Part shown: positions 1-64,000 of the stretch, piece by piece
How the letters are laid out: each line of letters starts with the position of its first letter
How positions within the stretch are numbered: the first letter of the stretch is position 1
Source of the DNA: Nostocoides sp.
Lineage (GTDB): Bacteria; Actinomycetota; Actinomycetes; Actinomycetales; Dermatophilaceae
Direction: 5' to 3'
DNA: 64,000 bases
NCBI GenBank assembly: GCA_016702415.1
Contig: JADJEA010000023.1
Span: 86,208 to 150,207, forward strand
Position numbers and translations under genes: made by a program
The notes under the pieces: model-generated
What the model was told of the DNA's origin: nothing
What the model saw: the letters and a program-made list of their open reading frames with translations, nothing else
The model's database searches: none

Positions 1-173
1 TGCGGGCGGCCGAGATCGAGGTCCCCGACCTGCGCGGCGGCTTCAGCTATCTCATCGCCGCGCTGGCGGCCGACGGGACCTCGAAGGTGCACGGGAGCGA
101 ACTGATCTACCGCGGCTACGAGCGCTTCTCCGAGAAGCTGGACGCGCTCGGCGCCGACTATCAACTCGACTGA
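1..173 (+). CDS. murA: UDP-N-acetylglucosamine 1-carboxyvinyltransferase, C-terminal end only (5' part lies upstream of the window)
   Basis: The frame ending at TGA 171-173 reads AAEIEVPDLRGGFSYLIAALAADGTSKVHGSELIYRGYERFSEKLDALGADYQLD. This matches the conserved MurA C-terminus (DLR..., RGYE..KL..LGA). Confidence 0.75.
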   Translation, partial: RAAEIEVPDLRGGFSYLIAALAADGTSKVHGSELIYRGYERFSEKLDALGADYQLD

Positions 174-197
174 GCGCGATGGGGCGGTCGTGTGTCG

Positions 198-425
198 CTA
201 GCGGATGATCTCGCCCTCGCCGATGCCGACCAACCACAGCCGGCTCACCGCGGGGGCGGCACCGTCCACAGGTTCGGTCCGAAGGCTCAGGCGCTGTCCG
301 ACCCGCAGCAGTCGAAGGCCGCTCTGCGCCAGTGCTGCCGGACCGAACGGGAGCACCACGCCGTCGTCGAGGATGACCTCGCCGGAGTGGGTGTCCGGGT
401 CGTACCGGTGGACGGTCGCCTGCAT
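198..425 (-). CDS. small hypothetical protein (75 aa) directly downstream of cofC on the same strand
   Basis: ORF track 198..425 (MQATVHRYDPDTHSGEVILDDGVVLPFG...). It has operon-like spacing after the cofC stop at 435. No domain is recognisable by eye. Confidence 0.45.
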   Translation of the reverse strand: MQATVHRYDPDTHSGEVILDDGVVLPFGPAALAQSGLRLLRVGQRLSLRTEPVDGAAPAVSRLWLVGIGEGEIIR

Positions 426-434
426 CGCGCGAGC

Positions 435-1098
435 CTAACGGAAGGAGACCGAGGCGTCGGCGAGGACCTTGGCGACATTGGGTCCGCAGCCGAGTTGAAG
501 GGCGGCGGCGAGATCGGCTGCGGTGTCGACATCGGTGCGCAACCGGGGGGAGTCGATATCCAGGCGGAGATAGCCGGACTTCTCGTGCCGCTCGGCCGAT
601 CCCTCCCCGAACCGCGGGTGCAGGGTCCCGGTTCGGTCGGTCAACAGGACCGTCCCGGTGCCCTCCCGGTCTGGGACGAAGGCACGGTCGTAGGACGCGG
701 CCAACGTGAGCGCGTCGATGAGGTCCTGCGGCCGCAGCGACGGGAGGTCGCCCAGAGGGGGGCGCGCCGCGGGGGTCAGGCCGGCGCGCGGGGGGGTGGC
801 GCCCGGGCCCGCTCGCACTGTCGGCGTGCCGGATCGCGGCGTTGAGGCCGGTCGCGGGGTCGGGGATACACAGCAGGCCGCGGCCCTCGGCATACCGACT
901 GATCACGGGGTCGCTGCACACGAGGACGATGCTGTCCGCGGGCAGCGCGGCGGCCACCGCATCAAGGGTGTCGAGGGCGATGGCGCGGCTGAGGGCGGCC
1001 CGGTCCGTGTGGGCGCCCTCGAGTCGGGACTTGCCCGCCGGCGCGCCCTTGACGGGCACGATGACCCACCAGGGGATCGGTCCGGGCGTCGGTGTCAT
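435..1098 (-). pseudogene. cofC: 2-phospho-L-lactate / phosphoenolpyruvate guanylyltransferase CofC/FbiD (F420 biosynthesis), split over two frames by one extra base in a C7 run (G7 on + strand, 790-796)
   Basis: The N-terminal ~96 aa (MTPTPGPIPWWVIVPVKGAPAGKSRL...GLNAAIRHADSA) lie in the frame of ORF 52..1098. The C-terminal ~105 aa (PLGDLPSLRPQDLIDALTLA...REGTGTVLL...) lie in the frame of ORF 435..893. The 664-nt span is not a multiple of 3. Deleting one C restores ...GRHPPRAGLTPAARPPLGDLPSLRP... Confidence 0.8.
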
Positions 1099-1175
1099 GG
1101 GCTCGATCGTGCCACGTCCGTCCGTGCGGAGGCAGCGTCCACCACGATGCGTCGTCGACAGGGAATGATCGGGAC

Positions 1176-1934
1176 GTGATCACCAGGACCGAGCACACCG
1201 AGGCCATGCCCGCGGCATACCGCCGAGTCGTTGCGACCCTGCGGCCGGTGATGATGCGGCTGACGAAGAGACACTGGTCGGGACTGGAGAACCTTCCCCG
1301 CACGGGCGGGTTCATCGTGTGCCCCAATCACGTGTCGTATGCCGATTTCCTCGCCCTCGCGCACCTCATGGTCGATGCGGGTCGTCCGGTCTATTTCCTC
1401 GGCAAGTCCGGGCTCTTCGAGACGCCGGTGCTCGGGCGGATCATCACCGCCGCCGATCAGATCCCGGTCTATCGGGGGACGGATCGCGCGGCCGATGCGT
1501 ATCGGGCCGCGGTCGCTGCGGTGCGCGCGGGCAAGGCGGTGGCGATGTATCCCGAGGGGACGCTCACGCGCGACCCCGGCCTGTGGCCGATGAAGGGCAA
1601 GACCGGTGCGGCTCGGGTCGCCCTGGAAACCGGGTGTCCGGTCATCCCGATCACGATGTGGGGACCGGAGCAGATCATCGCGCCGTACTCGGGCAAGTTG
1701 CGCGTCTTCCCGCGCAAGACCATGCGCATTGTCGTGGGGCCGCCAGTTCCTTTGGACGATCTGTACGGTCAGTCCGGAGCCGAGGTGGCGCGTCAGGCCA
1801 CCGATCGGATCATGGCGGCCATCACGGGGCAACTCGAGGAGATCCGGGGCGAGACGGCACCGGCACAGAGGTACGACTCGCGGCAGGCGGGCGAGCCGGA
1901 CTTCGGGGCACCCCGGGCCCGGCGCCGCGGATGA
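1176..1934 (+). CDS. 1-acyl-sn-glycerol-3-phosphate acyltransferase family protein (PlsC-like)
   Basis: ORF 1092..1934 carries the H(X)4D acyltransferase motif NHVSYAD and a PEGT motif (YPEGTLTRD). The start is uncertain (GTG 1176 or ATG 1206). Confidence 0.8.
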   Translation: MITRTEHTEAMPAAYRRVVATLRPVMMRLTKRHWSGLENLPRTGGFIVCPNHVSYADFLALAHLMVDAGRPVYFLGKSGLFETPVLGRIITAADQIPVYRGTDRAADAYRAAVAAVRAGKAVAMYPEGTLTRDPGLWPMKGKTGAARVALETGCPVIPITMWGPEQIIAPYSGKLRVFPRKTMRIVVGPPVPLDDLYGQSGAEVARQATDRIMAAITGQLEEIRGETAPAQRYDSRQAGEPDFGAPRARRRG

Positions 1935-2052: not shown

Positions 2053-3131
2053 GCCTGCAGGGCGCCCGTCAGATCGGCCCACAGATCCTCGACGTCCTCG
2101 ATGCCGACCGAGAGGCGGATCAGGGTGTCGGGGGTCGAGGGGGGCTCCTCGGCATACCGCCGGCGGCGCTCCCACTGCGACTCGACTCCGCCCAGGGAGG
2201 TGGAGCGGCTGATGAGGTGGGCGGCGCGGCATACGCGCTCGGCGTCCGCGCCCGTCCCGGTCACCTCGAGGGAGATCATCGCCCCGAAGCCGGGGTAACG
2301 CACCCGCGCGACTCGGGGGTGCGCGGCCAGTCGCGCGGCGAGGATCGCGGCGTTGCGGGAGGCCCGGGTCAGGCGCACCGAGAGGGTGCGCAGGCCACGG
2401 GTTGCCAGCCAGGCCTCCGTCGGCCCGGGGATCGCGCCGCCGAGCAGCCGGGCCCGCGCAAGCCGGCCGGCGAGGTCGTCCCCGTGCGGGGTGGGCGCGG
2501 TGACGCAGGCGCCGAGGACGACGTCGGAATGACCGCTGAGGTACTTCGTGACGGAATGGACGACGACATCGGCCCCGTCGGCGAGCGGGCGCTGGCACAG
2601 TGGCGTGGCGAAGGTGTTGTCGCACACGACGATTGCCCCGCGGTCATGTGCGGCCTCGACGATCGCCGGGATATCGCATGTGTCCAGGAGCGGATTGGTG
2701 GGGGACTCCAGCCAGACGAGGCCGGCGCCCACGGTCGCGGCCTGCGAGGCCGCCGTATCGCTCATGTCGACCCAGCGGACGGCGAGGTCGCCGGCCGCGT
2801 GGGCGGCGGCCAGCACGGCGGCCGTCCCGTTATAGGGCCCGACCGGAGCCACGACCGTGCTTCCGGTGGGGACGAGTCCGATGGCCGCAGTGATCGCGGC
2901 CATGCCCGAGGCGAAGAGCAGCGCCTGCCCACCCTCGAGACTCCCCAGGATGTCTTCGAACGCGGTCCAGGTCGGATTCGTGTCTCGGGCGTAGACGTCG
3001 TCGCCGTCCGCGGTGTAGGTCGAGGTCAGCGTGATCGGTGCCACCAGGGGGGTGCCCGGCTCGGGCCGAGGCCGGCCACCGGCCACCACCCGGGTCGCCG
3101 GTTGGAGGGTGGGGCCTTCGGAGTGCGACAT
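2049..3131 (-). CDS. Cys/Met-metabolism PLP-dependent enzyme (cystathionine gamma-synthase / gamma-lyase family), 360 aa
   Basis: C-terminal part of ORF 2049..3995, starting at ATG 3131-3129 (MSHSEGPTLQPATRVVAGG...). It carries the PLP-lysine motif HSVTKYLSGHSDV and the family-typical end LIRLSVGIEDVEDLWADL. Confidence 0.88.
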   Translation of the reverse strand: MSHSEGPTLQPATRVVAGGRPRPEPGTPLVAPITLTSTYTADGDDVYARDTNPTWTAFEDILGSLEGGQALLFASGMAAITAAIGLVPTGSTVVAPVGPYNGTAAVLAAAHAAGDLAVRWVDMSDTAASQAATVGAGLVWLESPTNPLLDTCDIPAIVEAAHDRGAIVVCDNTFATPLCQRPLADGADVVVHSVTKYLSGHSDVVLGACVTAPTPHGDDLAGRLARARLLGGAIPGPTEAWLATRGLRTLSVRLTRASRNAAILAARLAAHPRVARVRYPGFGAMISLEVTGTGADAERVCRAAHLISRSTSLGGVESQWERRRRYAEEPPSTPDTLIRLSVGIEDVEDLWADLTGALQA

Positions 3132-3188: not shown

Positions 3189-4319
3189 ATGAATTCCGAC
3201 CAGCCCACCCGACGAATCCGCGTCGCTCTGCTCTTCGGCGGACGCTCGTCCGAACACGCGGTCTCGTGCGCCACGGCCGCCGGGGTGATGCGCGCGATCG
3301 ATCGCGCGGCATACGACATCATCCCGGTGGGCATCGCCCCGGACGGCCGGTGGGTCGTCGTCGCCGACGACCCGGCACCCCTGGAACTGACCACTGCCAA
3401 CCGGCCCGAGGTCCCCGTCGACGCCCCCAGCGTCCTGGTGCCGACGAGCACGCGGGACCGCACGCTCAAGGCCCTCGACGCGGGCGAGATCCCCACCGAG
3501 CTGGGTGAGGTCGATGTCGTCTTCCCGCTCCTCCACGGGCCGTATGGCGAGGACGGCACCGTCCAGGGGCTGCTGGAGTTGGCCGACATCCGCTACGTCG
3601 GGTCCGGGGTGCTCGCCTCCGCGGTGGGCATGGACAAGCACTACATGAAGGTCGTCTTTGCCGGGGCGGGATTGCCCGTCGGTCCGTATGCCGTTGTCCC
3701 CGACGCCCGCTGGCGCCATGAGCGCGAGGCCGTCCGGGCCGAGATCGCGGCGCTGGGGTTGCCGGTCTTCGTCAAGCCCGCGCGCGCCGGCAGTTCCATG
3801 GGCATCACCAAGGTCACCGACGCCGGGGCTCTCGACGCGGCGATCGAGGCGGCCCGGGAGCACGACCTCAAGGTCCTCGTCGAGGCGGCCATCGTCGGGC
3901 GGGAGATCGAGTGCGCGGTCCTCCAGGGCCACGACGGGGCGCCGCCGCGCACCTCGGAGGTCGGCGAGATCGTCGTGCGGCCGGGTCACGGGCACGAGTT
4001 CTACGACTTCGAGGCGAAATATCTCGACGGCAGCGCGGTCGAGCTGAGTTGCCCGGCGGATGTGCCGCCTGAGGTCGCCGACACCATCCGGGCGTATGCC
4101 GCGCGCGCCTTCTCCGCCCTCGGCTGCGAGGGGCTCGCCCGCGTCGATTGCTTCTATACCGACGACGGGACGGTCCTGGTCAACGAGATCAACACGATGC
4201 CGGGGTTCACCCCGACATCGATGTACCCGCAGATGTGGCGCGCGAGTGGCCTGACCTATCCCGACCTGATCGACGAGCTCATCGCGCTCGCCCTGGAGCG
4301 CCCGCTCGGCCTTCGCTGA
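3189..4319 (+). CDS. ddl: D-alanine--D-alanine ligase
   Basis: ATG 3189 is in the frame of ORF 2217..4319. Matching segments are RIRVALLFGGRSSEHAVS, FPLLHGPYGEDGTVQGLLEL, KPARAGSSMGI and VNEINTMPGFT. Confidence 0.95.
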   Translation: MNSDQPTRRIRVALLFGGRSSEHAVSCATAAGVMRAIDRAAYDIIPVGIAPDGRWVVVADDPAPLELTTANRPEVPVDAPSVLVPTSTRDRTLKALDAGEIPTELGEVDVVFPLLHGPYGEDGTVQGLLELADIRYVGSGVLASAVGMDKHYMKVVFAGAGLPVGPYAVVPDARWRHEREAVRAEIAALGLPVFVKPARAGSSMGITKVTDAGALDAAIEAAREHDLKVLVEAAIVGREIECAVLQGHDGAPPRTSEVGEIVVRPGHGHEFYDFEAKYLDGSAVELSCPADVPPEVADTIRAYAARAFSALGCEGLARVDCFYTDDGTVLVNEINTMPGFTPTSMYPQMWRASGLTYPDLIDELIALALERPLGLR

Positions 4320-4383: not shown

Positions 4384-4779
4384 TCACATGCAGTGATGAC
4401 CGGTCTTGGGCAATGCCGCGGCCACCGCGTCGAGGTCGGGCAGGATCATGGACTCGGGCGCATACGCCGACGGAACCAGGACTTCGACGGCGGGGTCGGT
4501 GCCATAGGTCGTGAAGGAGTACCCGTCGGAGAGCGACGTGACGATCCAGTCGTGGCCGTCCACGGAGAGACAGTCCTGTGTGGTGGCGGGGAGGGCGGCA
4601 TACCCACAGCGCGCGATGATCGCCGGGTCACCCCAGGCGGCTGTGGACGCATCCGCGGGGGTTGTCGACCGTCGCCGCTGGTCGGCGACGTGGTCGGGCC
4701 AGGCCACCGCCACGCAAGCGGGGTCGGAGGCCCGAGGAGCCAGCGCGACCTCGACACCGCCGCCGCAGGCGGCCAGCAC
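4384..4779 (-). CDS. DUF3515-like secreted/lipoprotein (conserved between ddl and thiL in actinobacteria)
   Basis: ORF 4384..4779. The open frame upstream of the annotated GTG reads LHRRSRLILPALVTASVLAACGGG, a lipoprotein signal peptide with lipobox LAAC. The true start is therefore probably upstream and non-canonical. Confidence 0.65.
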   Translation of the reverse strand: MLAACGGGVEVALAPRASDPACVAVAWPDHVADQRRRSTTPADASTAAWGDPAIIARCGYAALPATTQDCLSVDGHDWIVTSLSDGYSFTTYGTDPAVEVLVPSAYAPESMILPDLDAVAAALPKTGHHCM

Positions 4780-5138: not shown

Positions 5139-6134
5139 ATGCCCACGTCGCCCCAGGCCGTCGTCGCGGATCTCACCGAGGACGCCCTGCTCGATCGGAT
5201 CCTCCCGCTGCTGGCGATCGGGGGGTCGGAGCGGGTCGGTCCGGGCGACGACGCGGCGGTTCTGGAGTTGGGCGGTTCGGCGGTCCTGACGACCGATTCG
5301 ATGGTGCGGGATATCGACTGGCGCGACGACTGGTCGACCCCGGAGGACGTCGCCGTCAAGGTGGTGGTCCAAAACCTCGCCGACCTTGCCGCCATGGGGG
5401 CGGTCCCGAGGTCGCTGTTGCTCAGCCTCGTGGTGGATCGGCATACCCCGGTGGAGTGGGTGGTCCGGTTCGCGGGGCAGTTCGGTCAGCAATGCCGCCG
5501 GTATGCCGTGTCCGCCTCCGGCGGGGATCTCTCCTCGGCGCCGGCGCAGACCCGCGTTGTCTCCGTCACCGCGGTCGGCACCCTGGAGGGAGCGCCGGTC
5601 CTGCGGTCGGGGGCGCGCCCCGGTGACCGGGTCGCGGTCACGGGTTCGCTCGGCCGATCGGCGGTGGGTCTGGCGCTGCTGACGGAGGCGAGCCGAGACG
5701 GGGTCGAGGTGTCCGGGTTGCCCGCCGAGGCGCTGGCCCATCACCTGCGGCCGAGCTGTCCGCTCAGCCAAGGTCCGATCGCGGCGGCCGCTGGTGCCAG
5801 CGCCATGCTCGACATCTCGGACGGACTTCTGCGCGACGCGGGCCGGATCGCCCGCGCCTCGCAGGTCGCGATCGCCCTCGACTCCGCGGCGCTGGCCCCC
5901 GACCTCAACTGGGCCGAGCGTTGGGTGAGCCGGGCTGTGGCCCGGGCCGCTGTCCTCGGGGGCGGGGAGGAGCACAGCCTGCTCGCCTGCTTCCCGCCGT
6001 CCGTCGAGGTCCCGTCGTGGTGGCGCGTGATCGGTCAGGTCCGCTCCGGGGTCGGCCTGCTCGTTGATGACCGGCCGACACCGGTCGCGGGCTGGGATCA
6101 CTTCGCGGGACGCGAGGTCCACCCAAGCCCGTAG
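5139..6134 (+). CDS. thiL: thiamine-monophosphate kinase
   Basis: ATG 5139 is in the frame of ORF 4812..6134. Matching segments are GPGDDAAVL, TTDSMVRDIDW, VVQNLADLAAMGA, ASGGDLS and MLDISDGLLRDAGRIA. Confidence 0.9.
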   Translation: MPTSPQAVVADLTEDALLDRILPLLAIGGSERVGPGDDAAVLELGGSAVLTTDSMVRDIDWRDDWSTPEDVAVKVVVQNLADLAAMGAVPRSLLLSLVVDRHTPVEWVVRFAGQFGQQCRRYAVSASGGDLSSAPAQTRVVSVTAVGTLEGAPVLRSGARPGDRVAVTGSLGRSAVGLALLTEASRDGVEVSGLPAEALAHHLRPSCPLSQGPIAAAAGASAMLDISDGLLRDAGRIARASQVAIALDSAALAPDLNWAERWVSRAVARAAVLGGGEEHSLLACFPPSVEVPSWWRVIGQVRSGVGLLVDDRPTPVAGWDHFAGREVHPSP

Positions 6135-12359: not shown

Positions 12360-12459
12360 CCAGGACTCGCGCCAGACCAGACCCCCCGTTGCAGGTGGAC
12401 GGTCCAAGGCTGTCGGGTCCGGCGGCCTCCGACCGACAACCGAAAGGACGGAACATCCT

Positions 12460-12651: not shown

Positions 12652-12676
12652 ATGGAGCAGATTGGCGGTCGAGCAA

Positions 12677-55372: not shown

Positions 55373-56284
55373 ATGAGCGACCCTGCGATCCGGGCGGAGA
55401 ACCCGGCCCCCGAGCCGATCGGGGCCGGCCCCTCGGCATACCCCCCGGCCATGTCCGCCGCGACGGCGCCACCCTCGCGCGCTGGACGCAACCTCGGGCA
55501 GGCGATCGCCGTCGGTGTCGCGCTCGCCGCCCTGGTCCTGGGGACGCTGGCGATCGAGAAGGACTGGTTCGGCTATGTCATCGCGGCGGCGATGGCCGTC
55601 GGGGCCTGGGAGATGCGACAGGCGCTGGCGCACAGGGATATTCACATCCCGCTGGTCCCCGTCGCCCTGGGGTCGGTCTTGATGATCCTCGGCGCGCAGG
55701 CCCAGGGTGCCGAGTCTCTCGTCATCGCCTTCGGCCTGACCGCGCTGGCGATCGTCGCGTGGCGCTTGCTCGACGGTGTGCAGGGAGCCGCCGCCGACTG
55801 TGCCGGCGGCATCCTCGTCGCCCTCTATCCCGGTTTCCTCGGCGGGTTCGCGGCGATGATGCTCGCCGAGACCGACGGTCTGGCGCGCACCGTCGTCTTC
55901 ATCCTCACGACGGTCTGTTCCGACATCGGGGGGTATGCCGCGGGCGTCCGCTTCGGACGCCATCCCATGGCCCCGCGGTTGTCGCCGAAGAAGTCGTGGG
56001 AGGGGTTCGCCGGGTCTGTCGGCGCGTGCGCCATCGCCGGGGGTGCCTCGGTGGCGCTGCTCCTGCATGGGTCGTGGATCGGGGGAGCCGGTCTCGGGGT
56101 GCTGGTTGCCTGCTGCGCCACGGTCGGCGACCTCATGGAGTCGAGCATCAAGCGGGACCTGGGCATCAAGGACATGTCGAATCTCCTTCCCGGACATGGC
56201 GGCCTGATGGACCGACTCGACTCGTTGGTGATGACTGCCCCGGTCTGTTGGGCCCTCCTCCTCCTGCTCGCCCCGGTCTCGTGA
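55373..56284 (+). CDS. cdsA: phosphatidate cytidylyltransferase
   Basis: Polytopic product with the CDS signature [28 protein letters not shown]. Confidence 0.93.
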
Positions 56285-57597
56285 GCGGCGACTCGGCCGC
56301 GCCGGACGGGACCGGTGTCGCGCCGGACGGCGCCGGGGGAGGGGACGCCGTCCGACCGCGGCCCGGCCAGCTGACGTTCGTCGCACCGCGGCGCCGCAAG
56401 CCCCCGACCCATCTGGCGGATCTCGATCCAGCGGGCCGCACGGCTGCCGCCGAGGCGTTGGGGCAGAAGGGCTTCCGCGCCCGGCAGGTCGCGGTGCACT
56501 ACTTCGAGCACCTGACCGTGACGCCCGAGGAGATGACCGACCTGCCCAAGGCCGGGCGCGCCGATCTCGTCGCTGCCCTCCTGCCGACGCTGCTGACGCC
56601 GGTGCGCACCCTGACCGCCGATGGCGGCGCGACGGTCAAGACGCTTTGGCGCCTCCACGATGGGGCGCTGGTGGAGTCGGTGCTCATGCGCTACCCCCGG
56701 CGGATCACGGTCTGCATCTCCAGTCAGGCCGGATGCGGGATGAACTGCCCGTTCTGCGCCACCGGTCAGGCGGGCCTGACCCGCAATCTCAGCACCGCCG
56801 AGATCGTCGAGCAGGTCGCGTATGCCGCGCGCACCCTCCGCGCGGGTGGCCTCGCCGACATCGAGCGCACCGACGCCGGACTCGGCCTCGCCGAGATGGA
56901 GGACTCCGGCGGTGGCCCGGACTCCGGCGGTGGCCCCGACTCCGGCGGTGGTGCGGACCTGGGCGGCGAGACCGGGGAGGCGGACGCGGCATACGGCGGC
57001 ACGCGGGTGACCAATGTCGTGTTCATGGGGATGGGGGAGGCCCTGGCCAACTACGCGGCCGCGATCGGGGCGATCCGGCGCCTGACCGACCCCTCGCCGG
57101 AGGGTTTCGGGATGTCCGCCCGCGGGCTGACCATGTCCACGGTCGGGCTGGTCCCGGCGATCGATCGCCTTGCGGCGGAGGGGATTCCGGTCACGCTCGC
57201 GCTGTCGTTGCATGCTCCCGACGACGATCTGCGCGACACCCTCGTGCCGATCAACACCCGCTGGCGGGTGGACGAGGCGCTCGACGCCGCCCGGCGCTAT
57301 TTCGAGGCCACCGGCCGGCGGGTGAGCATCGAGTACGCCCTGATCCGCGACATCAACGACCAGTCCTGGCGCGCCGACCTGTTGGGGGAGAAGCTCGCCG
57401 CCCGTGGCCGAGGCTGGGTCCACGTCAACCCGATCCCGCTCAACCCGACCCCGGGGTCGCGCTGGACCGCCTCCCGGGCGGGGGTCGCCCAACAGTTCGT
57501 CGAGCGGGTGCGGGCGCACGGCATACCGACGACGGTGCGGGACACCCGCGGTCGGGAGATCGACGGCGCCTGCGGGCAGCTCGCCGCAGCCACCTGA
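56281..57597 (+). CDS. rlmN: 23S rRNA / tRNA (adenine-C2)-methyltransferase RlmN (radical SAM) with an internal repeat insertion
   Basis: GTG 56281 overlaps the cdsA stop. It has the CxxxCxxC cluster motif [21 protein letters not shown] and the conserved end GACGQL. Confidence 0.93.
56902..56955 (+). repeat. three tandem 18-bp units (GACTCCGGCGGTGGCCCN, encoding DSGGGP) inside rlmN
   Basis: Read directly. The protein reads [23 protein letters not shown]. Confidence 0.85.
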
Positions 57598-57657: not shown

Positions 57658-59064
57658 ATGGCTCAACCGACCTCCACCGTCGAGACCGTCGTCAATCTCT
57701 GCAAGCGGCGCGGCTTCGTGTTCCCGTGCGGAGAGATCTATGGCGGGACCCGGTCGGCGTGGGACTACGGCCCCCTCGGGGTGGAGCTCAAGGAGAACAT
57801 CAAGCGCCAGTGGTGGAAGGCGATGGTCCACGGGCGCGACGACGTCGTCGGCCTCGATTCTTCGATCATCTTGCCGAAACAGACCTGGGTGGCCAGTGGT
57901 CACGTCGGCGAGTTCACCGATCCGCTGACCGAGTGCCTGTCCTGTCACAAGCGGTTCCGGGTCGACCACATGCAGGAGGCGCTGGCCGACAAGGAATCCA
58001 AGAAGGGCAAGGAGGTCGCGCCCGACTCGATCGCGCTGGAGACCATCGCCTGCCCCAATTGCGGGACCCGTGGGCAGTGGACCGAGCCGCGTGCCTTCAA
58101 CATGATGCTCAAGACCTACCTCGGGGTCGTCGACGACGAGTCCGGGCTGCACTACCTGCGGCCCGAGACGGCGCAAGGGATCTTCGTCAACTACCTCAAC
58201 GTCCAGAACGCGGCCCGGATGAAGCCGCCGTTCGGCATCGCCCAGACCGGCAAGTCCTTCCGCAACGAGATCACGCCGGGCAACTTCATCTTCCGCACCC
58301 GCGAGTTCGAGCAGATGGAGATGGAGTTCTTCGTCCCGCCGGGCACCGACGAGGACTGGCATCAGTACTGGATCGACGAGCGCATGCGGTGGTATGTCGA
58401 TCTCGGCATCAACCCCGACAATCTGCGCCTCTACGAACACCCGCGGGAGAAGCTCTCGCACTACTCCAAGCGGACCGTCGACATCGAGTACCGCTTCGGC
58501 TTCACCGGCTCGGAGTGGGGCGAACTGGAGGGCATCGCCAACCGGACCGACTTCGACCTCGGCACCCACTCGCGCCACTCCGGCACCGACCTCGTCTTCT
58601 TCGACCAGGCCTCGGGGGAGAAATACACGCCCTATGTGATCGAGCCGGCCGCCGGTCTCTCCCGGTCCTTGATGACCTTTCTCGTCGAGGCGTATGCCGA
58701 GGACGAGGCCCCGAACGCCAAGGGCGGGGTCGACAAACGCGTCGTGCTGCGCTTGGACAAGCGCCTGGCACCGGTCAAGGCGGCCGTGCTGCCGCTGTCC
58801 CGCAACGCCGACCTCTCGCCGAAGGCGCGCGACCTCGCCGCCCGACTGCGGCGCAACTGGAATGTCGAGTTCGACGACGCCCAGGCGATCGGGCGCCGCT
58901 ACCGCCGCCAGGACGAGATCGGCACGCCGTACTGCATCACGGTCGACTTCGACAGCCTCCAGGACGAGGCGGTGACCATCCGCGAGCGCGACACGATGCG
59001 TCAGGAACGGGTGTCCCTGGACCAGGTCGAGGGCTATCTCGCCGCCCGCCTTCCCGGTTGCTGA
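57658..59064 (+). CDS. glyQS: glycine--tRNA ligase (homodimeric class II type)
   Basis: [51 protein letters not shown], and an anticodon-binding C-terminus. Confidence 0.97.
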
Positions 59065-59109: not shown

Positions 59110-60153
59110 GTGAGTGCGGAGTTCGCGCGGCGCTGGCTCCGCTTCACCCCGAGCCTGAATCGGATGATCCTCGCCGACCTCCCGGGGGCGCCCGCGGGGG
59201 TGGCCGGGACGCGAGCGAACGACTGGCTGACCACGTGGTCGATCGCCCGCCACCTCGCCGCCGACGCGGACCTGCTCGAGGAGACCCGCGGCATACGGCC
59301 TGGACTGGCGACCCTGCCGTCGGCACCGGAGGTCACGGCCGAGCTCATGGACGCGGCGATCGACTATCCCGCGGCCCTCGATGCCCTGCTCGCCCCTTCT
59401 GGTCGTCCTCGAACCGATCCGGCGTCGGCGCTGGCGCGGCGCCTCGGCACCATCCTGGGCCTCTTGTTGGCCACAGTCACCATCGGCCCCGAGGAGACCC
59501 GGCGCGCGCACGGGGAGTGGCCAGCGCAGCACTGGGAGCGGTGGGCCGCGGTGCGCCGGATCGCCCTCGGTGGTGGAGTCCTGCGCGGCCGGCTCGGTGT
59601 CGTCATGACGGACTCCGCGAGCCGATTCCTGGCGGATCTGGCGTCTCCGGCCCGGCTCGTGCTTGTCGATGACCCTCGATTCCTCGTGCTGCGCGGGGCG
59701 GCTCACCGCATCGGCGAGGGCGTCGCGCTGGATTGCGGCGGGTCGACCATCAAGCGTGCCGTGGCCCATCGAGGGCGTCCCGGGGACATCGACACCGTCC
59801 CGGCACCCGGGCGGGTCGCGGCCGAGGAGGTCATCGAGACCATCGCGGTGTCCGCCGCTCCCCTGATCGCGACGTGGCCGGGCCCCGACCCCGTGCCCCT
59901 GTCGGTCGCCATCGCGACCTATGTCGACCCCGACGGTCAGCCGTATGCCGATCAACTCGGCCCGTACGCACCCCTGGGGAATCTCGACGCGCCGGCCGCC
60001 CTGCGGGCGGCGAGCACGCGGCATACCGACCGGGCGGTGGAGGTCCTCCTCGCGCACGACGGGGCCAGCGCGCTGTCCGGTGCCCGCGCCGAGGCTCCGG
60101 ACACGGATGCGGCGGTCGTCCTCGGGACCGCTCTGGGCAGCGGGCTGGCCTGA
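59110..60153 (+). CDS. hypothetical protein (347 aa) with weak ASKHA/ROK-kinase-like motifs in its C-terminal half
   Basis: ORF 59110..60153. ALDCGGSTIKRAV resembles the phosphate-1 motif D.GGT.IK, and VVLGTALGSG resembles the G-rich ADENOSINE motif. The N-terminal ~190 aa are unassigned. Confidence 0.45.
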   Translation: MSAEFARRWLRFTPSLNRMILADLPGAPAGVAGTRANDWLTTWSIARHLAADADLLEETRGIRPGLATLPSAPEVTAELMDAAIDYPAALDALLAPSGRPRTDPASALARRLGTILGLLLATVTIGPEETRRAHGEWPAQHWERWAAVRRIALGGGVLRGRLGVVMTDSASRFLADLASPARLVLVDDPRFLVLRGAAHRIGEGVALDCGGSTIKRAVAHRGRPGDIDTVPAPGRVAAEEVIETIAVSAAPLIATWPGPDPVPLSVAIATYVDPDGQPYADQLGPYAPLGNLDAPAALRAASTRHTDRAVEVLLAHDGASALSGARAEAPDTDAAVVLGTALGSGLA

Positions 60154-61430: not shown

Positions 61431-61469
61431 CCGGTCCCCGGTGATGGGGCGAAGACACCAGGAGTGCCG

Positions 61470-62711
61470 ATGATCGACCCCGTCGTCCACCGTCCGGAGA
61501 TCCTGCGCTTGGTCGCGCGCCTGCGGGAGGCTGCACGGGGGTCGGCGCGACCGCATACCCTCATCATTGGTGCCCGGGGGAGCGGCAAGACGACGGTCGT
61601 CGCGTCGGCCGTCCAGGCAGCCCTCGGATCGCCTCGCACCTCCCGCCGACTCACAGTCGTCTGGGTCGGCCAGGATGCCGTCGCCCTCATGGCGTATGCC
61701 GATCTCCTCCTGCTGATCCTGCGCCGCCTCACCGGCGCAAGCGACCCTAGGCACGCGGCCCTGCGCCGCGAGCGTGACCACGTCGGGCTGGAGACCGCGA
61801 TCGTCGCGGCCCTGGACGGGCGGGTGCTCGTCCTGGTCCTGGAGAATCTCCACCATCTCTTCGGCGCCTTCGGGCGCACCGGGGCGGGCGCCCTGCGCGG
61901 CTTCGTCGAGTCCTCCGGCTCCGTGCTCGTCGTCGCCACCTCCCCCCGCGTCTTCCGCGATGTGACGTCTCGTGACGAGCCCTGGTTCGGCAATTTCGTC
62001 ACCGAACGCCTCGACGGTCTCTCCGCGTCGACCGGTGCCGCGGTCCTGGTCTCGGCTGCCCGCGACCGAGGCGGCGACGACGTCGTCGCCTTCGTCGACA
62101 GCGAGCCGGGGCGGGCACGCATCGCTGCGCTGGCGCACCTCGCCGGCGGCTCGATCCGGTTCTGGAGTCTCCTCGGGACGTATGCCGATGCCTCCGACCT
62201 CGACGACCTCGCTCCCGCCGTGCGGCTGGTCCTGGACCGACTCGGCGGCTATCTCACCGGCCGCATCGCCGCCCTGCCCGCCGACCAACAGACCCTCGTC
62301 GCCGAGTTGGCTCGCGGTCCCGGCGCGCAGAGCGTCCAGGAACTCGCCGACAGCGCCGGCCAGGACCCCAAGGTCACGGGCACGACCCTGCGCCGCCTGA
62401 CCGACGCCCACCTCGTGACCGCGACCAAGGTCCCGGGGACCGACCAGCGCACCACGTGGTACGACATTCGCGAGCCCCTCCTTCGCCTCCATATCCAATG
62501 GTCGGACCTCGACTCCGTCGCCCGTGCGGGGCCGGCGAGTCCGGACCCGCCTGCCGTGCCCGACCTGCTGCCGCTCCTGCGCCGGTGGCATGCCGATTCC
62601 TCCCTCCACCCGCCCGCCTCGCCCCTGGAGGAACTCTTCTTGGCCGCGCGGGGGGACCGCGCGGCATACGCCCATCTGCCCGCCGACCTGCGCGCGCTCG
62701 TGGATGGCTGA
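61470..62711 (+). CDS. second, divergent AAA+ P-loop ATPase with C-terminal winged-helix domain (413 aa)
   Basis: ATG 61470 follows the RBS AGGAG. It has Walker A GARGSGKTT and a Walker-B-like VLVLVLENLH. A wHTH-like segment reads QQTLVAELARGPGAQSVQELADSAG...LRRLTDAHLV, followed by TTWYDIREPLLRLHIQW. Confidence 0.7.
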   Translation: MIDPVVHRPEILRLVARLREAARGSARPHTLIIGARGSGKTTVVASAVQAALGSPRTSRRLTVVWVGQDAVALMAYADLLLLILRRLTGASDPRHAALRRERDHVGLETAIVAALDGRVLVLVLENLHHLFGAFGRTGAGALRGFVESSGSVLVVATSPRVFRDVTSRDEPWFGNFVTERLDGLSASTGAAVLVSAARDRGGDDVVAFVDSEPGRARIAALAHLAGGSIRFWSLLGTYADASDLDDLAPAVRLVLDRLGGYLTGRIAALPADQQTLVAELARGPGAQSVQELADSAGQDPKVTGTTLRRLTDAHLVTATKVPGTDQRTTWYDIREPLLRLHIQWSDLDSVARAGPASPDPPAVPDLLPLLRRWHADSSLHPPASPLEELFLAARGDRAAYAHLPADLRALVDG

Positions 62712-62798
62712 CGCACCCCCGTACGTGGCGTATCTGCGCACCAAAATCGGCCGGAGCGCTGTTTGCCGCTGGCCTGAGCGGGCGCTTACCCTGGCCCG

Positions 62799-63992
62799 AT
62801 GCGTGTGCGTGCCCTTGTCGTCGCCGTCGTGGCCGTCCTGTCTCTGGCCGCGTGCGGAGGCGACCCGGCAAGTCTCCCCAAAGCGGGGCAGCACGGGCAT
62901 ACCTCCGCCGGGAGTTCATCGACCGCGTCCGCCGCCTCCTCCGGTGTCCCCACGGTCAAGGCCAAGCCGGTGGCTCTGCGGCGCGGCGAGCGCTTCCTCG
63001 AGCTGCGGATGCCGCACCCCTACACGCCGTCGGTCCCGACGATCGGGACCGACGAATACCGCTGCTTCCTTCTCGACCCGAAGCTGAGCAAGGACGCGGT
63101 GATCACGGGGACCGACTTCTTGCCGGGGAACGTCAAAGAGGTTCATCACGTCATCCTCTACAAGGTGGATCCCCAGGACGTCGCGGCCGCAAAGGCGCTC
63201 GACGCCAAGGACCCCGGTGACGGCTGGACCTGCTTCGGCGGCACCGGGATTCGCGAAGGCGGCGCAGGGGCGCAGCAGATCGACCAGGCACCCTGGCTCG
63301 GCGCGTGGGCCCCGGGCGGGACGGAAAAGGTCACGCCCCCCGGCATCGGCACCTCGCTGCCCGAGGGCAGTCAGATCGTCATGCAGATCCACTACAACCT
63401 CCTCGACGGGAGTTCGCCGGACCAGAGCGCGGCGAAGTTGCGCATCGCCACCGACGACGGGAGCTACAACTACCTCCACACGACGCTCTTGCCGGCACCG
63501 ATCGAGCTGCCCTGCCGCGACGGTGTGGCCAACAAACTGTGCAGCCGGGACGCAGCGATGGCCGATAACTATGCGCGCTTCGGCACCGAGGCCAAGCTTG
63601 CCGATCTGCTCCATCTCCTCTGCGGGCCCGAGCCCGTCGGCCCGACCCAGAGCTGCACCCGGCCGGTCGCCGAGCCGATGGTCGTGCGCGCCATCGCCGG
63701 GCACATGCACCTGCTCGGACGATCGATCTCCGTCGTCGCCGACAAGGGCACCCCCAAGGAGAAGACCCTCCTCGATATCGCGACGTGGGACTTCGACAAC
63801 CAGGGGTCGATCCCGCTCCCGCAGCCGGTTAGGCTGACGCCCACGGACACGCTCACCGTGACGTGCACCCACGATCAGTCCCTGCGCGACAAGCTCCCGG
63901 CCTTCGCCGGAACGAAGGAACGCTATGTCGTCTGGGGCGAGGGCACGACCGACGAGATGTGCCTCGGCATCGTGTTGTTCACCAAGTCCTGA
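62799..63992 (+). CDS. lipoprotein with copper type II ascorbate-dependent monooxygenase-like (PHM/DBH-like) two-domain core
   Basis: Signal peptide plus lipobox (VAVLSLAAC). Copper-ligand-like pattern in canonical order: HH (EVHHVILY), H (QIHYNL), HxH (GHMHLLG), M (TDEMCLG). Multiple paired Cys residues. Confidence 0.65.
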   Translation: MRVRALVVAVVAVLSLAACGGDPASLPKAGQHGHTSAGSSSTASAASSGVPTVKAKPVALRRGERFLELRMPHPYTPSVPTIGTDEYRCFLLDPKLSKDAVITGTDFLPGNVKEVHHVILYKVDPQDVAAAKALDAKDPGDGWTCFGGTGIREGGAGAQQIDQAPWLGAWAPGGTEKVTPPGIGTSLPEGSQIVMQIHYNLLDGSSPDQSAAKLRIATDDGSYNYLHTTLLPAPIELPCRDGVANKLCSRDAAMADNYARFGTEAKLADLLHLLCGPEPVGPTQSCTRPVAEPMVVRAIAGHMHLLGRSISVVADKGTPKEKTLLDIATWDFDNQGSIPLPQPVRLTPTDTLTVTCTHDQSLRDKLPAFAGTKERYVVWGEGTTDEMCLGIVLFTKS

Positions 63993-64000
63993 CCGGGTGC

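Follow-up and report, generated by a model that had tools for sequence, protein, structure and literature searches.

A saturating eight-nucleotide word in a clade of Actinobacteria: possible core of a DNA self-recognition signal

Introduction

Why does a single word of eight letters, CGGCATAC, recur about 1.4 times per kb in the window, that is, in the whole 64 kb stretch of DNA analysed here? An earlier note, made from the letters alone, had counted about 45 and 42 copies on the two strands and compared the word with DNA uptake signals. The hyper-abundant oligomers in the literature are only Chi, uptake sequences and HIP1 (PMC4390886), and HIP1 has now been linked to transformation (bioRxiv 10.64898/2026.06.24.733823). 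In our limited literature search we found no earlier description of CGGCATAC or of such a signal class in Actinobacteria, in agreement with the earlier note.

Results

The window contains 87 exact copies, 45 on the + strand and 42 on the - strand (Table 1), precisely as counted before, and the reported excess of about 40-fold holds against a zero-order expectation of 2.2. Dinucleotide-preserving shuffles of the window yield 1.05 copies on average and never more than 4, and base composition is excluded as the cause. The 8-mer is the unit, because the counts of its sub-words are barely higher (GCATAC 95, GGCATA 93, GGCATAC 91, CGGCATA 89). Its 24 one-mismatch neighbours show no enrichment in the window (53 in total vs 59 expected), and dispersed repeats are excluded as carriers of the excess. 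Coding copies number 79, a count that rests on crude CDSs of the window; within-gene synonymous shuffles give 7.1 +/- 2.5 (maximum 15) and codon-order shuffles 2.2 +/- 1.5. A codon artefact, against which the earlier note had argued, is thus also excluded.

The word has been written into nearly every protein-neutral place of the window genome. Of 109 peptide contexts able to encode it synonymously, 79 (72%) do so, compared with 2.2% in other actinobacterial families; by class, the saturation is 38/41 for x-Y-A-[ADEGV], 8/9 for R-H-T and 20/25 for [APST]-A-Y. Expressed as ln(odds ratio), the scaled advantage per site is about 3-5, which is typical of per-site drive and not of a diffuse organism-level benefit. 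As previously claimed, all frames are used: the coding copies fill the six frame/orientation classes unevenly (xxG-TAT-GCC-G 38, xCG-GCA-TAC 20, CGG-CAT-AC 8, GGC-ATA-C 7, xGT-ATG-CCG 4 and GTA-TGC-CG 2), and the word does bring in the rare Ile codon ATA, with 7 of the 8 such codons in window CDSs falling inside it. The gene names given earlier (recG, mutM, ffh, comM, rlmN, thiL, glnD and nfo) were verified.

Neither the window (45:42) nor the oriented syntenic loci of relatives (292:292 pooled) reveal strand polarity, and a polar signal of the Chi or KOPS type is excluded, as had been suggested. Untranslated copies exist (7-8), one of those listed earlier, at 38599, possibly lying in the 5' part of the rplS ORF; the density is approximately 0.8 per kb in intergenic DNA vs 1.45 per kb in coding DNA. 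The inverted pair at 52179/52206, previously described as a terminator, forms the only clear intergenic hairpin of this kind in the window (dG -49 kcal/mol, z -6.1). It sits between tsf and a - strand ORF, which converge on it, and resembles a bidirectional terminator that lacks a U tract; close inverted pairs as such are not significantly enriched in the window (4 vs 2.3 expected, P = 0.19). The lower intergenic density and the lack of over-represented inverted pairs are observations that speak against uptake. No copies occur between 11888 and 13827 or in 60261-61430, which bears out the statement that the low-GC islet and the first ATPase gene lack the word. The ORFs of the islet have no Pfam matches, and the islet was probably acquired more recently; its lack of CGGCATAC is an observation in favour of uptake.

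In 79 of 87 copies the word is followed by G or C, as the earlier note had observed. Most copies are also preceded, on the motif strand specifically, by a G-rich tract at -14..-5, with G at -11 in 68/87, at -5 in 61/87 and at -8 in 56/87, and a GGGG run lies within 20 nt upstream in 26/79 coding copies. C is seldom found at -1, G or C is preferred at +1, and C is favoured at +3/+4. The G-rich 5' flank is an addition in the window genome and a new finding.

Enrichment of CGGCATAC extends across a family-level clade comprising Janibacter, Nostocoides, Lapillicoccus, Arsenicicoccus and Serinicoccus, together with numerous metagenome contigs, in which as many as 35 copies stand in 22 kb. Saturation is 58% in Janibacter and 17-45% in other in-group genomes. 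Dermacoccaceae, Mobilicoccus and all other families sampled remain at background level. Two subclades use single-letter dialects in its place, CGGCATCC and CCGCATAC, which are monophyletic and mutually exclusive: one member of the CGGCATCC clade (L232) has 34 dialect copies vs 1, and the CCGCATAC clade reaches a dialect saturation of 38-41% vs a background of 0.9%. Two forms occur together in a few genomes (L220, L007). At orthologous sites, outgroups carry CGGCACAC, GTACGCCG, CGGCATGC or CGGCATCC, and GTTCGCGG, and sites with different neighbour words have converged on CGGCATAC. Some sites involve amino-acid replacements, namely M/L to I-ATA in Ffh and F to Y in SMC. Host-like saturation with the word is also seen in two contigs of phages that are probably temperate.

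Table 1. Copies of CGGCATAC in the window (rows naming only a gene or region) and other features
Positions	Strand	Gene, region or feature	Context
1..64000	.	extended CGGCATAC context	flanks + core: one element, asymmetric, about 22 nt long
888..895	+	CofC-like ORF (- strand)	sense nnG-TAT-GCC-Gnn
1213..1220	+	acyltransferase	nCG-GCA-TAC
1337..1344	-	acyltransferase	nnG-TAT-GCC-Gnn
2150..2157	+	Cys/Met PLP enzyme	nnG-TAT-GCC-Gnn
2227..2234	+	Cys/Met PLP enzyme	GTA-TGC-CGn
3307..3314	+	ddl	nCG-GCA-TAC
3686..3693	-	ddl	nnG-TAT-GCC-Gnn
4094..4101	-	ddl	nnG-TAT-GCC-Gnn
4596..4603	+	hypothetical ORF	nnG-TAT-GCC-Gnn
5439..5446	+	thiL	CGG-CAT-ACn
5501..5508	-	thiL	nnG-TAT-GCC-Gnn
6725..6732	+	recG	GGC-ATA (rare Ile codon)
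7229..7236	-	recG	nnG-TAT-GCC-Gnn
8104..8111	+	recG	nCG-GCA-TAC; G7 run before
8225..8232	-	recG	nnG-TAT-GCC-Gnn
8970..8977	-	rsmD	nnG-TAT-GCC-Gnn
9126..9133	-	rsmD	nnG-TAT-GCC-Gnn
9576..9583	+	coaD	nCG-GCA-TAC
10724..10731	-	intergenic	upstream of rnc
11888..11895	+	mutM	GGC-ATA
12360..13790	.	motif-free islet	lower GC, 0.657 measured over 11888-13827
13827..13834	-	acyltransferase-like gene	CGG-CAT-ACn
14962..14969	+	acyltransferase-like gene	nnG-TAT-GCC-Gnn
16307..16314	-	chorismate mutase	nGT-ATG-CCG
17662..17669	-	smc	nnG-TAT-GCC-Gnn
17907..17914	+	smc	nCG-GCA-TAC
19431..19438	+	smc	nCG-GCA-TAC
19525..19532	-	smc	E-Y-A-A; outgroups E-F-A-A
20443..20450	+	intergenic	smc-ftsY
21722..21729	+	intergenic	ftsY-amt
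22835..22842	+	amt	nCG-GCA-TAC
23138..23145	+	amt	nCG-GCA-TAC
24193..24200	+	glnD	CGG-CAT-ACn; Thr unique to window
24332..24339	+	glnD	nCG-GCA-TAC
24441..24448	-	glnD	nnG-TAT-GCC-Gnn
24913..24920	+	glnD	conserved R-H-T; outgroups CGGCACAC
25893..25900	-	glnD	conserved T-Y-A-G; outgroups GTACGCCG or GTACGCGG
27528..27535	+	ffh	G-G-I(ATA)-P; relatives Met, Leu or Ile(ATC)
27978..27985	-	a/b hydrolase	nnG-TAT-GCC-Gnn
28463..28470	+	a/b hydrolase	nCG-GCA-TAC
29563..29570	+	hypothetical ORF	nCG-GCA-TAC
30196..30203	-	Rrf2 regulator	nnG-TAT-GCC-Gnn
30442..30449	+	intergenic	upstream of rpsP
32196..32203	+	histidine kinase/DUF4153	nnG-TAT-GCC-Gnn
32278..32285	-	histidine kinase/DUF4153	nCG-GCA-TAC
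33044..33051	-	histidine kinase/DUF4153	CGG-CAT-ACn
33738..33745	+	histidine kinase/DUF4153	nnG-TAT-GCC-Gnn
34996..35003	+	response regulator	GTA-TGC-CGn
35108..35115	+	response regulator	nnG-TAT-GCC-Gnn
35545..35552	-	rimM	nnG-TAT-GCC-Gnn
36055..36062	-	trmD	nGT-ATG-CCG
36697..36704	+	trmD	nCG-GCA-TAC
37178..37185	+	hypothetical ORF	nnG-TAT-GCC-Gnn
38388..38395	+	hypothetical ORF	close inverted pair with 38418
38418..38425	-	hypothetical ORF	GGC-ATA
38599..38606	+	rplS	5' end or leader
40696..40703	-	rnhB	nnG-TAT-GCC-Gnn
40879..40886	-	rnhB	nnG-TAT-GCC-Gnn
41187..41194	+	rnhB	close inverted pair with 41215
41215..41222	-	rnhB	nnG-TAT-GCC-Gnn
42233..45075	+	comM (Mg-chelatase/ChlI family) + dprA (DNA_processg_A)	context only; transformation-associated genes
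42592..42599	+	comM	GGC-ATA; close inverted pair with 42613
42613..42620	-	comM	nnG-TAT-GCC-Gnn
42733..42740	-	comM	nnG-TAT-GCC-Gnn
43363..43370	-	comM	nnG-TAT-GCC-Gnn
44348..44355	+	dprA	nCG-GCA-TAC
47571..47578	-	aminotransferase	nnG-TAT-GCC-Gnn
48048..48055	-	aminotransferase	nnG-TAT-GCC-Gnn
49190..49197	+	nfo	CGG-CAT-ACn
49255..49262	-	nfo	nnG-TAT-GCC-Gnn
49778..49785	+	nfo	CGG-CAT-ACn
50145..50152	-	intergenic	upstream of rpsB
50497..50504	-	rpsB	nGT-ATG-CCG
52176..52216	.	hairpin	perfect 19-bp stem, 3-nt loop; inverted CGGCATAC pair + GC-rich flanks
52179..52186	-	intergenic	hairpin left arm
52206..52213	+	intergenic	hairpin right arm
52511..52518	-	hypothetical ORF	nCG-GCA-TAC
54407..54414	-	pyrH	nGT-ATG-CCG
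55434..55441	+	ORF after frr	nCG-GCA-TAC
55933..55940	-	ORF after frr	nnG-TAT-GCC-Gnn
56820..56827	-	rlmN	nnG-TAT-GCC-Gnn
56987..56994	+	rlmN	nCG-GCA-TAC
57519..57526	+	rlmN	GGC-ATA
58692..58699	-	glyQS	nnG-TAT-GCC-Gnn
59289..59296	+	hypothetical ORF	GGC-ATA
59943..59950	-	hypothetical ORF	nnG-TAT-GCC-Gnn
60019..60026	+	hypothetical ORF	CGG-CAT-ACn
61694..61701	-	AAA ATPase 2	nnG-TAT-GCC-Gnn
62180..62187	-	AAA ATPase 2	nnG-TAT-GCC-Gnn
62662..62669	+	AAA ATPase 2	nCG-GCA-TAC

Discussion

The sequences show directly how abundant CGGCATAC is, how far it saturates its possible sites, its symmetry between the strands, its distribution over the clade, its dialects and its presence on phage contigs, and we infer that DNA uptake or transfer may be the process that reads it. 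We tentatively propose, giving the idea a little under an even chance, that CGGCATAC forms the core of a signal, specific to this clade, for self-recognition in DNA uptake or transfer, and that molecular drive has spread it. According to this proposal, a sequence-specific DNA-binding part of the DNA-import (possibly DNA-transfer) machinery would prefer double-stranded DNA bearing the word, and in the window genome the G-rich 5' flank would strengthen the preference. Word-bearing fragments from relatives would be taken up and recombined more frequently, the recombination being carried out by functions of the DprA, ComM and RecA type, of which DprA and ComM are encoded in the window. Because such fragments would enter and recombine more often, mutations that create the word would be over-transmitted in the population, which is molecular drive. 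With time the word would fill nearly all amino-acid-neutral positions, plus some that require a conservative change; it would spread onto long-resident, probably temperate phages and be lacking in DNA gained only recently. Were the receptor to change its specificity, the genome of the descendant lineage would be rewritten into a dialect that differs by one letter, CGGCATCC or CCGCATAC.

The uptake-signal reading of the earlier note is partly supported. Each sequence-level hallmark of uptake signals open to analysis here agrees with it: a density of about 1.4 per kb, the symmetry, the use of all frames and of intergenic DNA, the hairpin and the motif-free islet. Further hallmarks, out of reach of the earlier note, are clade restriction, single-nucleotide dialects that are monophyletic, and the build-up of the word in the two probably temperate phage contigs. 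The presence of comM and dprA is weak evidence for uptake, because both genes are widespread in Actinobacteria. To our knowledge, sequence-specific uptake occurs solely in diderm Proteobacteria, where type IV pilins are combined with an outer-membrane step, an observation that speaks against uptake here, and we know of no monoderm bacterium studied to date that takes up DNA with a sequence preference. Our limited literature search found no reports of uptake or transformation for members of the clade. The word may instead be the footprint of a HIP1-like methylation or repair system, or may serve as a "self tag" bound by a protein, alternatives of the kind that the earlier note had itself raised; any mechanism that acts on all intracellular DNA also predicts the host-level saturation in phage structural genes. 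Known uptake signals have no counterpart to the G10-type flank of the window genome, which likewise counts against uptake.

For the proposed self-recognition signal, the closest analogues are the DUS of Neisseriaceae and the USS of Pasteurellaceae. The density of CGGCATAC differs from that of DUS, in that intergenic DNA is not enriched over coding DNA. The clade-wise dialects resemble those of DUS, which are likewise monophyletic, mutually exclusive single-nucleotide forms, and the hairpin of the window has its parallel in the DUS inverted pairs described between convergent genes (PMC3630211). The saturation of the phage contigs resembles that of temperate Pasteurellaceae phages, in which USS occur at host-like levels (PMC6776037). 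The pattern of CGGCATAC is otherwise known only for the DNA-uptake signals of Gram-negative bacteria, and therefore the bacteria of this clade may exchange DNA preferentially with their own kind.

Results

Abundance and placement of the word in the window

The 8-base word CGGCATAC occurs 45 times in the window and its reverse complement GTATGCCG occurs 42 times, which bears out the estimate of approximately 45 and 42 copies in the earlier note. These 87 copies in 64 kb amount to 1.36 per kb (basis: the 64 kb and the syntenic loci) and represent a 40-fold over-representation, with a strand use of 1:1, in DNA with a GC content of 70.9%; dinucleotide-preserving shuffles of the window contained 1.05 copies on average and four at most. 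The 8-mer is the unit of the excess: GCATAC, GGCATA, GGCATAC and CGGCATA are found 95, 93, 91 and 89 times in the window, compared with 87 for the full word, and the 24 one-mismatch neighbours together reach 53 copies versus 59 expected from composition. The largest family of 12-mers has 11 members; therefore, no longer repeat lies beneath the word. Dispersed repeats of the REP or MITE type, which exceed 20-30 nt and are mostly extragenic imperfect palindromes, were rejected because approximately 80 of the 87 copies are intragenic and sequence conservation ends at the 8-mer.

Genes were called from GC3, and their identities were verified with Pfam and NCBIfam. The verified genes include recG, thiL, ddl, rnc, mutM, smc, ftsY, amt, glnB, glnD, ffh, rpsP, rimM and trmD, together with rplS, lepB, rnhB, comM, dprA, an xerC-type recombinase gene, nfo, rpsB, tsf, pyrH, frr, rlmN and glyQS. 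The first, crude gene calls placed 79 copies in coding sequence, and ORFs extended to full length placed 80, the copy at 888 then being part of ORF 52-1098. When synonymous codons were shuffled in each gene, 7.1 +/- 2.5 copies (maximum 15) remained, and shuffles of codon order left 2.2 +/- 1.5, compared with the 79 coding copies, so that the claim that the excess is no codon-pair artefact withstood both nulls.

The word uses all six frame and orientation classes and has 7-8 intergenic copies in the window; the earlier note had placed it in all three frames and in untranslated DNA. The main classes are the sense form xxG-TAT-GCC-G (38 copies) and xCG-GCA-TAC (20 copies), and rare codons are concentrated within the word, which accounts for 7 of the 8 ATA and 38 of the 126 TAT codons of the window. 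Saturation, the share of peptide contexts able to encode the word synonymously that do carry it, is 72% (79/109); it reaches 38/41 for x-Tyr-Ala-[ADEGV], 8/9 for Arg-His-Thr and 20/25 for [APST]-Ala-Tyr, and the empty contexts are mostly Gly-Ile, in which ATA is required, and x-Met-Pro, in which an NGT codon is required. The dipeptides themselves are enriched just 1.2- to 1.4-fold, which indicates that the excess was gained mainly at synonymous sites. The log odds ratio relative to background is approximately 3-5 per site, and a per-site advantage of this size is large enough to fill most free sites.

In a grouping chosen post hoc, highly expressed genes use 7 of 16 opportunities versus 72 of 93 elsewhere; recG, glnD, comM, rnhB, nfo and rlmN are near saturation. 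The low use in highly expressed genes suggests that the motif competes with codon selection for translation. Genome-maintenance genes use 21 of 24 opportunities versus 58 of 85 elsewhere, a difference that is suggestive only and likewise stems from a post hoc choice.

Most genes of the window lie on the + strand, yet the word is divided 45:42 between the strands, and the division is 292:292 when all carrier loci are pooled and oriented by the flanking conserved gene. These ratios exclude polar signals of the Chi or KOPS type, as the earlier note had argued: the orientation bias along replication expected of a Chi recombination hotspot for RecBCD or AddAB is missing, as is the leading-strand skew toward dif expected of KOPS and SRS, the words that guide FtsK and SpoIIIE. 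The gaps between copies are slightly more even than random (CV 0.82).

The pair at 52179 and 52206, between convergent genes, folds into a perfect stem of 19 bp (dG -49 kcal/mol, z -6.1) without a U tract. The inverted pair that the earlier note read as a terminator is thus one clear intergenic hairpin, and pairing is no general rule, since inverted pairs less than 40 nt apart are not enriched in the window (4 versus 2.3 expected, P = 0.19). In addition, motif density in the intergenic DNA of the window is not above that in coding DNA.

The longest gaps between copies include a low-GC stretch at 11888-13827 (GC 0.657). The islet within it and one ATPase gene, both small regions, lack the motif, and the label toxin-antitoxin previously given to the islet was not confirmed. 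A large gene on the - strand (31543-34503) encodes a HAMP/HisKA/HATPase sensor kinase fused to a C-terminal DUF4153 membrane domain; it adjoins an MtrA/CseB-like response regulator gene and is inserted between rpsP/KH and rimM/trmD.

The G-rich tract upstream of the word

When all copies are oriented alike, positions -14 to -5 on the motif strand are G-rich, often with a G5-G7 run. G makes up a fraction of 0.52 at -16 to -3 of the 79 coding copies, compared with 0.348 +/- 0.012 in controls of equal frame and orientation; position -11 is G in 64 of these copies (z about 7), and GGGG runs occur in 26 copies versus 7.1 +/- 2.4 expected. The tract is found in all six frame classes and hence on either coding strand, and it also enriches non-third codon positions, which means that it costs amino-acid changes. 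Position -1 is seldom C, +1 is G or C in 79 of the 87 copies, and +3 and +4 favour C. The 8-mer, the G tract and these preferences together form an asymmetric composite element of approximately 22 nt, beyond which no sequence is conserved. The genome of the window has the strongest tract; in several relatives it is less marked (0.42-0.47), and others lack it.

Coordinates of features in the window and in the loci compared with it
Sequence	Feature	Coordinates	Remarks
Window	G-rich tract 5' of a copy (example)	8080-8103	
Window	G-rich tract 5' of a copy (example)	33052-33075	- strand
Window	G-rich tract 5' of a copy (example)	62638-62661	
Window	Lower-GC islet	12360-13790	Between mutM and an acyltransferase-like gene; ORFs 12662-13183 and 13296-13730, both without Pfam hit; no motif
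Window	AAA_16/STAND-like ATPase gene, first of adjacent pair	60261-61430	No motif; 1 opportunity unused
Window	AAA_16/STAND-like ATPase gene, second of pair	61464-62711	Motif in 3/3 opportunities; sub-threshold FtsK_SpoIIIE P-loop hit
Window	ffh	26179-27774	Highly expressed, less saturated
Window	rpsB	50235-51299	Highly expressed, less saturated
Window	amt	21838-23241	Highly expressed, less saturated
Window	frr	54799-55362	Highly expressed, less saturated
L015	Tandem coding repeat	17433-17620	Period 9-15 nt
L242	Tandem coding repeat	9226-9377	Period 9-15 nt
L268	Tandem coding repeat	8111-8304	Period 9-15 nt
L266	Tandem coding repeat	16472-16587	Period 9-15 nt
L006	Tandem coding repeat	11612-11684	Period 9-15 nt
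L002	Tandem coding repeat	3926-4004	Period 9-15 nt
L300 (= L314)	Phage contig	1-11178	High GC; terminase, portal, protease, major head and tape-measure proteins
L302	Phage contig	1-7591	High GC; ParB-like nucleases, RusA

Taxonomic distribution and dialects

The window was compared with Ffh-centred loci, one genome per species, and with GlnD-centred metagenome contigs. The Ffh-centred loci place it in the Dermatophilaceae/Intrasporangiaceae, and its closest Ffh matches are a Nostocoides MAG and an Intrasporangiaceae MAG (85% identity). Codon-aware saturation is 2.2% (14/646) in other actinobacterial families, compared with 17-72% within the group: 58% in Janibacter sp. HTCC2649 and 17-45% in Nostocoides, Lapillicoccus, Arsenicicoccus, Serinicoccus, Ornithinimicrobium, Phycicoccus sp. 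Root101 and several MAGs. It is 0-5% in the Dermacoccaceae (Luteipulveratus, Yimella), Mobilicoccus and Phycicoccus avicenniae. The GlnD-centred contigs add dozens of carriers, the richest of which has 35 copies in 22 kb; no close strain appeared in this metagenome scan, in which the best GlnD identity was 74%.

Two subclades write the word with a single letter changed. CGGCATCC takes the place of CGGCATAC in a clade of 13 loci (34:1, 27:1 and 28:4 in loci L232, L224 and L244), and CCGCATAC does so in four loci, in which its saturation is 38-41% versus a background of 0.9%. Each group is monophyletic on a GlnD neighbour-joining tree and nested in the CGGCATAC radiation, and in a few genomes (loci L220 and L007) two forms stand side by side.

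The earlier note had asked for a check of the synonymous motif positions in orthologues, and indeed the word stands in the in-group at conserved peptides that outgroups encode with ordinary codons. At a GlnD Arg-His-Thr site, the in-group has CGGCATAC and the outgroups have CGGCACAC; at a Thr-Tyr-Ala-Gly site, the in-group has GTATGCCG and the outgroups have GTACGCCG or GTACGCGG. Some window copies came at the price of an altered peptide: Gly-Gly-(Met/Leu/Ile-ATC)-Pro of Ffh has Ile-ATA, Glu-Phe-Ala-Ala of SMC has become Glu-Tyr-Ala-Ala, and Arg-His-x of GlnD has become Arg-His-Thr. The word is reached from differing neighbour words by changes at positions 2, 5, 6 and 7, transversions included; therefore, the whole 8-mer is favoured rather than one mutational hotspot. 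A single hotspot of 5-methylcytosine deamination (GTACGCCG to GTATGCCG) was rejected because the R-H-T, G-I and M-P contexts reach the word via other positions.

The window is poor in GTAC (6.9 versus 15.8 per 10 kb), which fits a conversion of GTACGCCG to GTATGCCG. Two Dermacoccaceae loci, from Yimella (L023) and Luteipulveratus (L008), have approximately twice the GTAC and 6-10 times the CGTACG of the median actinobacterial locus. Neither CGTACG nor CGGCGTAC, both enriched in the Dermacoccaceae and in a Nocardioides locus, was accepted as a motif of its own, as all GTAC words rise diffusely and no sharp 8-mer emerges. Likewise, the apparent second hyper-abundant motifs of relatives (GAGCCTCAGCA, AAGGCTGAGAAG, CTGACAAGG and others) proved to be tandem repeats of local extent within coding sequence. 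These repeats lie near the ftsY/smc region (e.g., AAGGCTGAGAAG, which encodes K-A-E-K), and the window has no counterpart.

Phage contigs

A strict hairpin pattern searched against viral contigs returned two relevant high-GC contigs, L300 and L302; among the matches listed for a looser scan with CGGCATAC-N4-34-GTATGCCG, only chance hairpins in unrelated, mostly low-GC phages were seen. L300 carries 7 copies (saturation 4/8) and L302 carries 8 (7/11), so that saturation is host-like at 50-64% in a sample biased by the fact that both contigs were found through the motif. Contig L315, which is 92% identical to L300, differs by single bases at 4 of the 7 motif sites, changes that are not polarised in this pair without an outgroup. 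The relatives of the L300 terminase belong almost all to low-GC phages without the motif and yielded no unbiased phage sample for the host clade. Temperate phages of Pasteurellaceae accumulate USS in a similar manner, up to host-like levels (PMC6776037), and the motif could serve as a host predictor for Dermatophilaceae phages.

Discussion

Composition, codon usage, dispersed repeats and polar motor signals are excluded as the source of the CGGCATAC excess. That the word is functionless and its excess stems from base composition, from the usage of codons or codon pairs, or from some mobile element or dispersed repeat, has practically no chance of being true. The concentration of 58 of the 79 coding copies in just two frames (Tyr-Ala and Ala-Tyr) would speak for such an origin, but the dinucleotide, synonymous-codon and codon-order shuffles leave 1, 7 and 2 copies versus 87 (79 coding), the word takes the disfavoured codons TAT, ATA, GTA, CAT and GCA, every frame class and intergenic DNA are in use, neither the approximately 22-nt limit of conservation nor the small 12-mer families suit a repeat, and related families of equal GC content and codon usage are saturated to only 2.2%. 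The shuffles, the saturation and the comparison with other families refute this reading. Something sequence-specific reads the word in full, and it is heritable and able to switch by one base.

Our best explanation, which we hold tentatively and with slightly less than even confidence, is that CGGCATAC may be a clade-specific self-recognition signal for DNA import or transfer, spread by molecular drive. By analogy, this reading is favoured because the non-polar hyper-abundant oligomers of the literature are uptake sequences and HIP1 (PMC4390886), because HIP1 itself is now being linked to transformation (bioRxiv 10.64898/2026.06.24.733823), and because the dialects resemble those of DUS. Of the hallmarks of uptake signals invoked by the earlier note, high density and the absence of polarity held up, and restriction to a clade, with dialects, adds to them; every frame class and intergenic DNA are used and one hairpin is present, but neither intergenic copies nor inverted pairs are enriched. 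Both comM and dprA lie in the window; these genes are common in Actinobacteria and prove nothing for uptake, and comEA/comEC, pilus genes and any receptor gene would lie beyond its limits. Against an uptake signal stand the lack of intergenic enrichment and the G tract, for which this reading offers no explanation. In the literature searched, no competence or sequence-specific uptake is reported for any monoderm of this group, nor does that literature describe the word, uptake-like signals or a naturally competent member of the Intrasporangiaceae/Dermatophilaceae, in line with the statement that this class is not described in Actinobacteria. A literature search with the 8-mer itself gave only noise because an Illumina adapter contains GTATGCCG.

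It is unlikely that the word is a HIP1-like element, that is, the site recognised by a DNA methyltransferase, orphan or non-palindromic, or by sequence-directed mismatch or nick repair, in which biased correction toward the word in heteroduplex or damaged DNA (gene conversion of a very-short-patch-like type) would enrich all resident DNA. Restriction-modification sites are as a rule avoided in genomes rather than enriched, the word is not a palindrome, a flank of approximately 10 G-rich nucleotides is unlike a compact enzyme recognition site, and the convergence via four positions with transversions leaves no single deamination or mismatch hotspot; moreover, the window has no DNA methyltransferase gene, although 64 kb says little. 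In its favour, host-like saturation in phage structural genes is expected of an intracellular process, one-base dialect shifts would be typical of a changed enzyme specificity, and the cyanobacterial HIP1, likewise an 8-mer, exceeds expectation 15- to 300-fold, occupies all frames, is conserved and has ties to methyltransferases (PMC5861425, PMC4390886), but HIP1 itself may work via transformation (bioRxiv 10.64898/2026.06.24.733823). It is also rather unlikely that organism-level selection keeps the word as the binding site of a chromosome-associated protein, be it one that structures the nucleoid or loads condensin, as a recombination hotspot without polarity, or as a "self" tag that guards DNA from a host nuclease or defence system and that phages mimic. 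The asymmetric composite of approximately 22 nt resembles a protein footprint, the slightly even spacing agrees with such a site, clade restriction and dialects fit a co-evolving DNA-binding protein, and the copies in phage genes fit selection on phages to pass as self. However, a collective function with diminishing returns would hardly maintain thousands of sites per genome, with 70-90% of the synonymous opportunities filled and a scaled advantage of approximately 3-5 per site. The known chromosome-organising sites (parS, matS and those of SlmA/Noc) number tens to about a hundred, Chi and KOPS are strongly polar, unlike this word, and the least saturation in highly expressed genes suggests a weak per-site benefit traded against codon choice.

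A variant of our best explanation, which predicts the same genomic footprint, is that an actinobacterial dsDNA translocase of the FtsK/SpoIIIE/TraB type reads the word in conjugative or distributive chromosome transfer, with drive arising from transfer bias rather than uptake bias; we regard it as quite improbable. The gamma domains of FtsK-family proteins read 8-bp words (KOPS, GGGNAGGG; SRS, GAGAAGGG; TRS of Streptomyces TraB, GACCCGGA), dsDNA conjugation is known only from Actinobacteria, and both the 8-bp length and the per-site drive signature fit. However, KOPS and SRS are highly strand-skewed, TRS words cluster in the clt loci of plasmids and are not known to abound on chromosomes in this way, and no TraB-like gene was seen in the window, in which the FtsK_SpoIIIE hit of the second ATPase gene scores 21.0 bits versus a cut-off of 24. 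Finally, there is a small but real chance that the word is no uptake signal but the trace of an intracellular, sequence-directed system of a kind not known before, whether a drive by conversion or repair or a "self-tag" that a nuclease or defence system reads. Such a system would act on all resident DNA of Dermatophilaceae cells, phages included, and would rewrite synonymous sites genome-wide, switch its target by one base and include the G10 flank in recognition.

Should CGGCATAC prove to be a signal for uptake or transfer, Proteobacteria would no longer be the only group with such a system, for which the still-debated HIP1 is the sole other candidate elsewhere, and a Gram-positive phylum would have its first. 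This would imply frequent kin-biased DNA exchange in the Dermatophilaceae, which include the Tetrasphaera/Phosphoribacter-type polyphosphate accumulators dominant in phosphorus-removal wastewater plants (PMC9123174). Oligonucleotides with the motif, its dialects and scrambled forms could then be used to find the receptor and to make poorly tractable bacteria transformable, and the co-evolution of recognition specificity with thousands of genomic sites could be studied. Whatever the mechanism, the word is a taxon marker for binning metagenomic contigs, can help to predict phage hosts and can flag recently acquired DNA. At a synonymous saturation of 70-90%, it is also remarkable how far a non-coding signal prevails over codon usage.

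Comparison with known systems

Chi, KOPS, SRS and TRS are likewise over-represented asymmetric words (5-8 nt) read by DNA-processing motors, and KOPS and SRS are G-rich, as is the flank of CGGCATAC; however, these words are co-oriented with replication and few-fold over-represented, compared with 40-fold and 1:1 strands here. HIP1 (GCGATCGC, cyanobacteria; PMC5861425, PMC4390886; bioRxiv 10.64898/2026.06.24.733823) is similarly a lineage-specific, hyper-abundant 8-mer that occurs in all frames, is attributed to selection or drive and long had no clear function. It is palindromic, tied to two methyltransferases and uniform across a phylum, whereas CGGCATAC is asymmetric, with the reverse complement GTATGCCG and a one-sided flank, and has dialects. 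The USS of Pasteurellaceae (PMC3458573, PMC2817400, PMC6776037) shares a strong core with a weaker extended flank preference, mostly coding copies in tolerant frames and peptides at some cost to proteins, and two family-level dialects; temperate phages reach host-like levels of USS, as two phage contigs found through the motif do for CGGCATAC. The USS flanks are AT-rich and helically phased, whereas CGGCATAC has one G-rich tract on one side; the saturation of CGGCATAC is very high (72% overall, approximately 90% in the main classes), and no comparable figure for USS was found.

The Neisseriaceae DUS, which likewise comes in dialects (Frye et al., 2013; PMC3630211), has 10-12 nt of unrelated sequence, whereas CGGCATAC has 8 nt and a G-rich flank, and it is read by ComP in Neisseria, whereas the host of CGGCATAC is a monoderm high-GC actinobacterium; the likeness is one of sequence features, and intergenic copies and inverted pairs are not enriched here. 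The one-sided G-rich flank is unique to the CGGCATAC system and among its new features, which comprise an uptake-signal-like word in a new phylum, a different cell envelope and dialects of its own. In common with DUS, CGGCATAC is a short non-palindromic word at approximately 1-2.5 copies per kb, on both strands, in several gene frames and between genes, with one clear case in the window of the terminator-like hairpins that inverted DUS pairs form, restriction to one family, monophyletic single-nucleotide dialects that match the core phylogeny, and occasional genomes that use two dialects.
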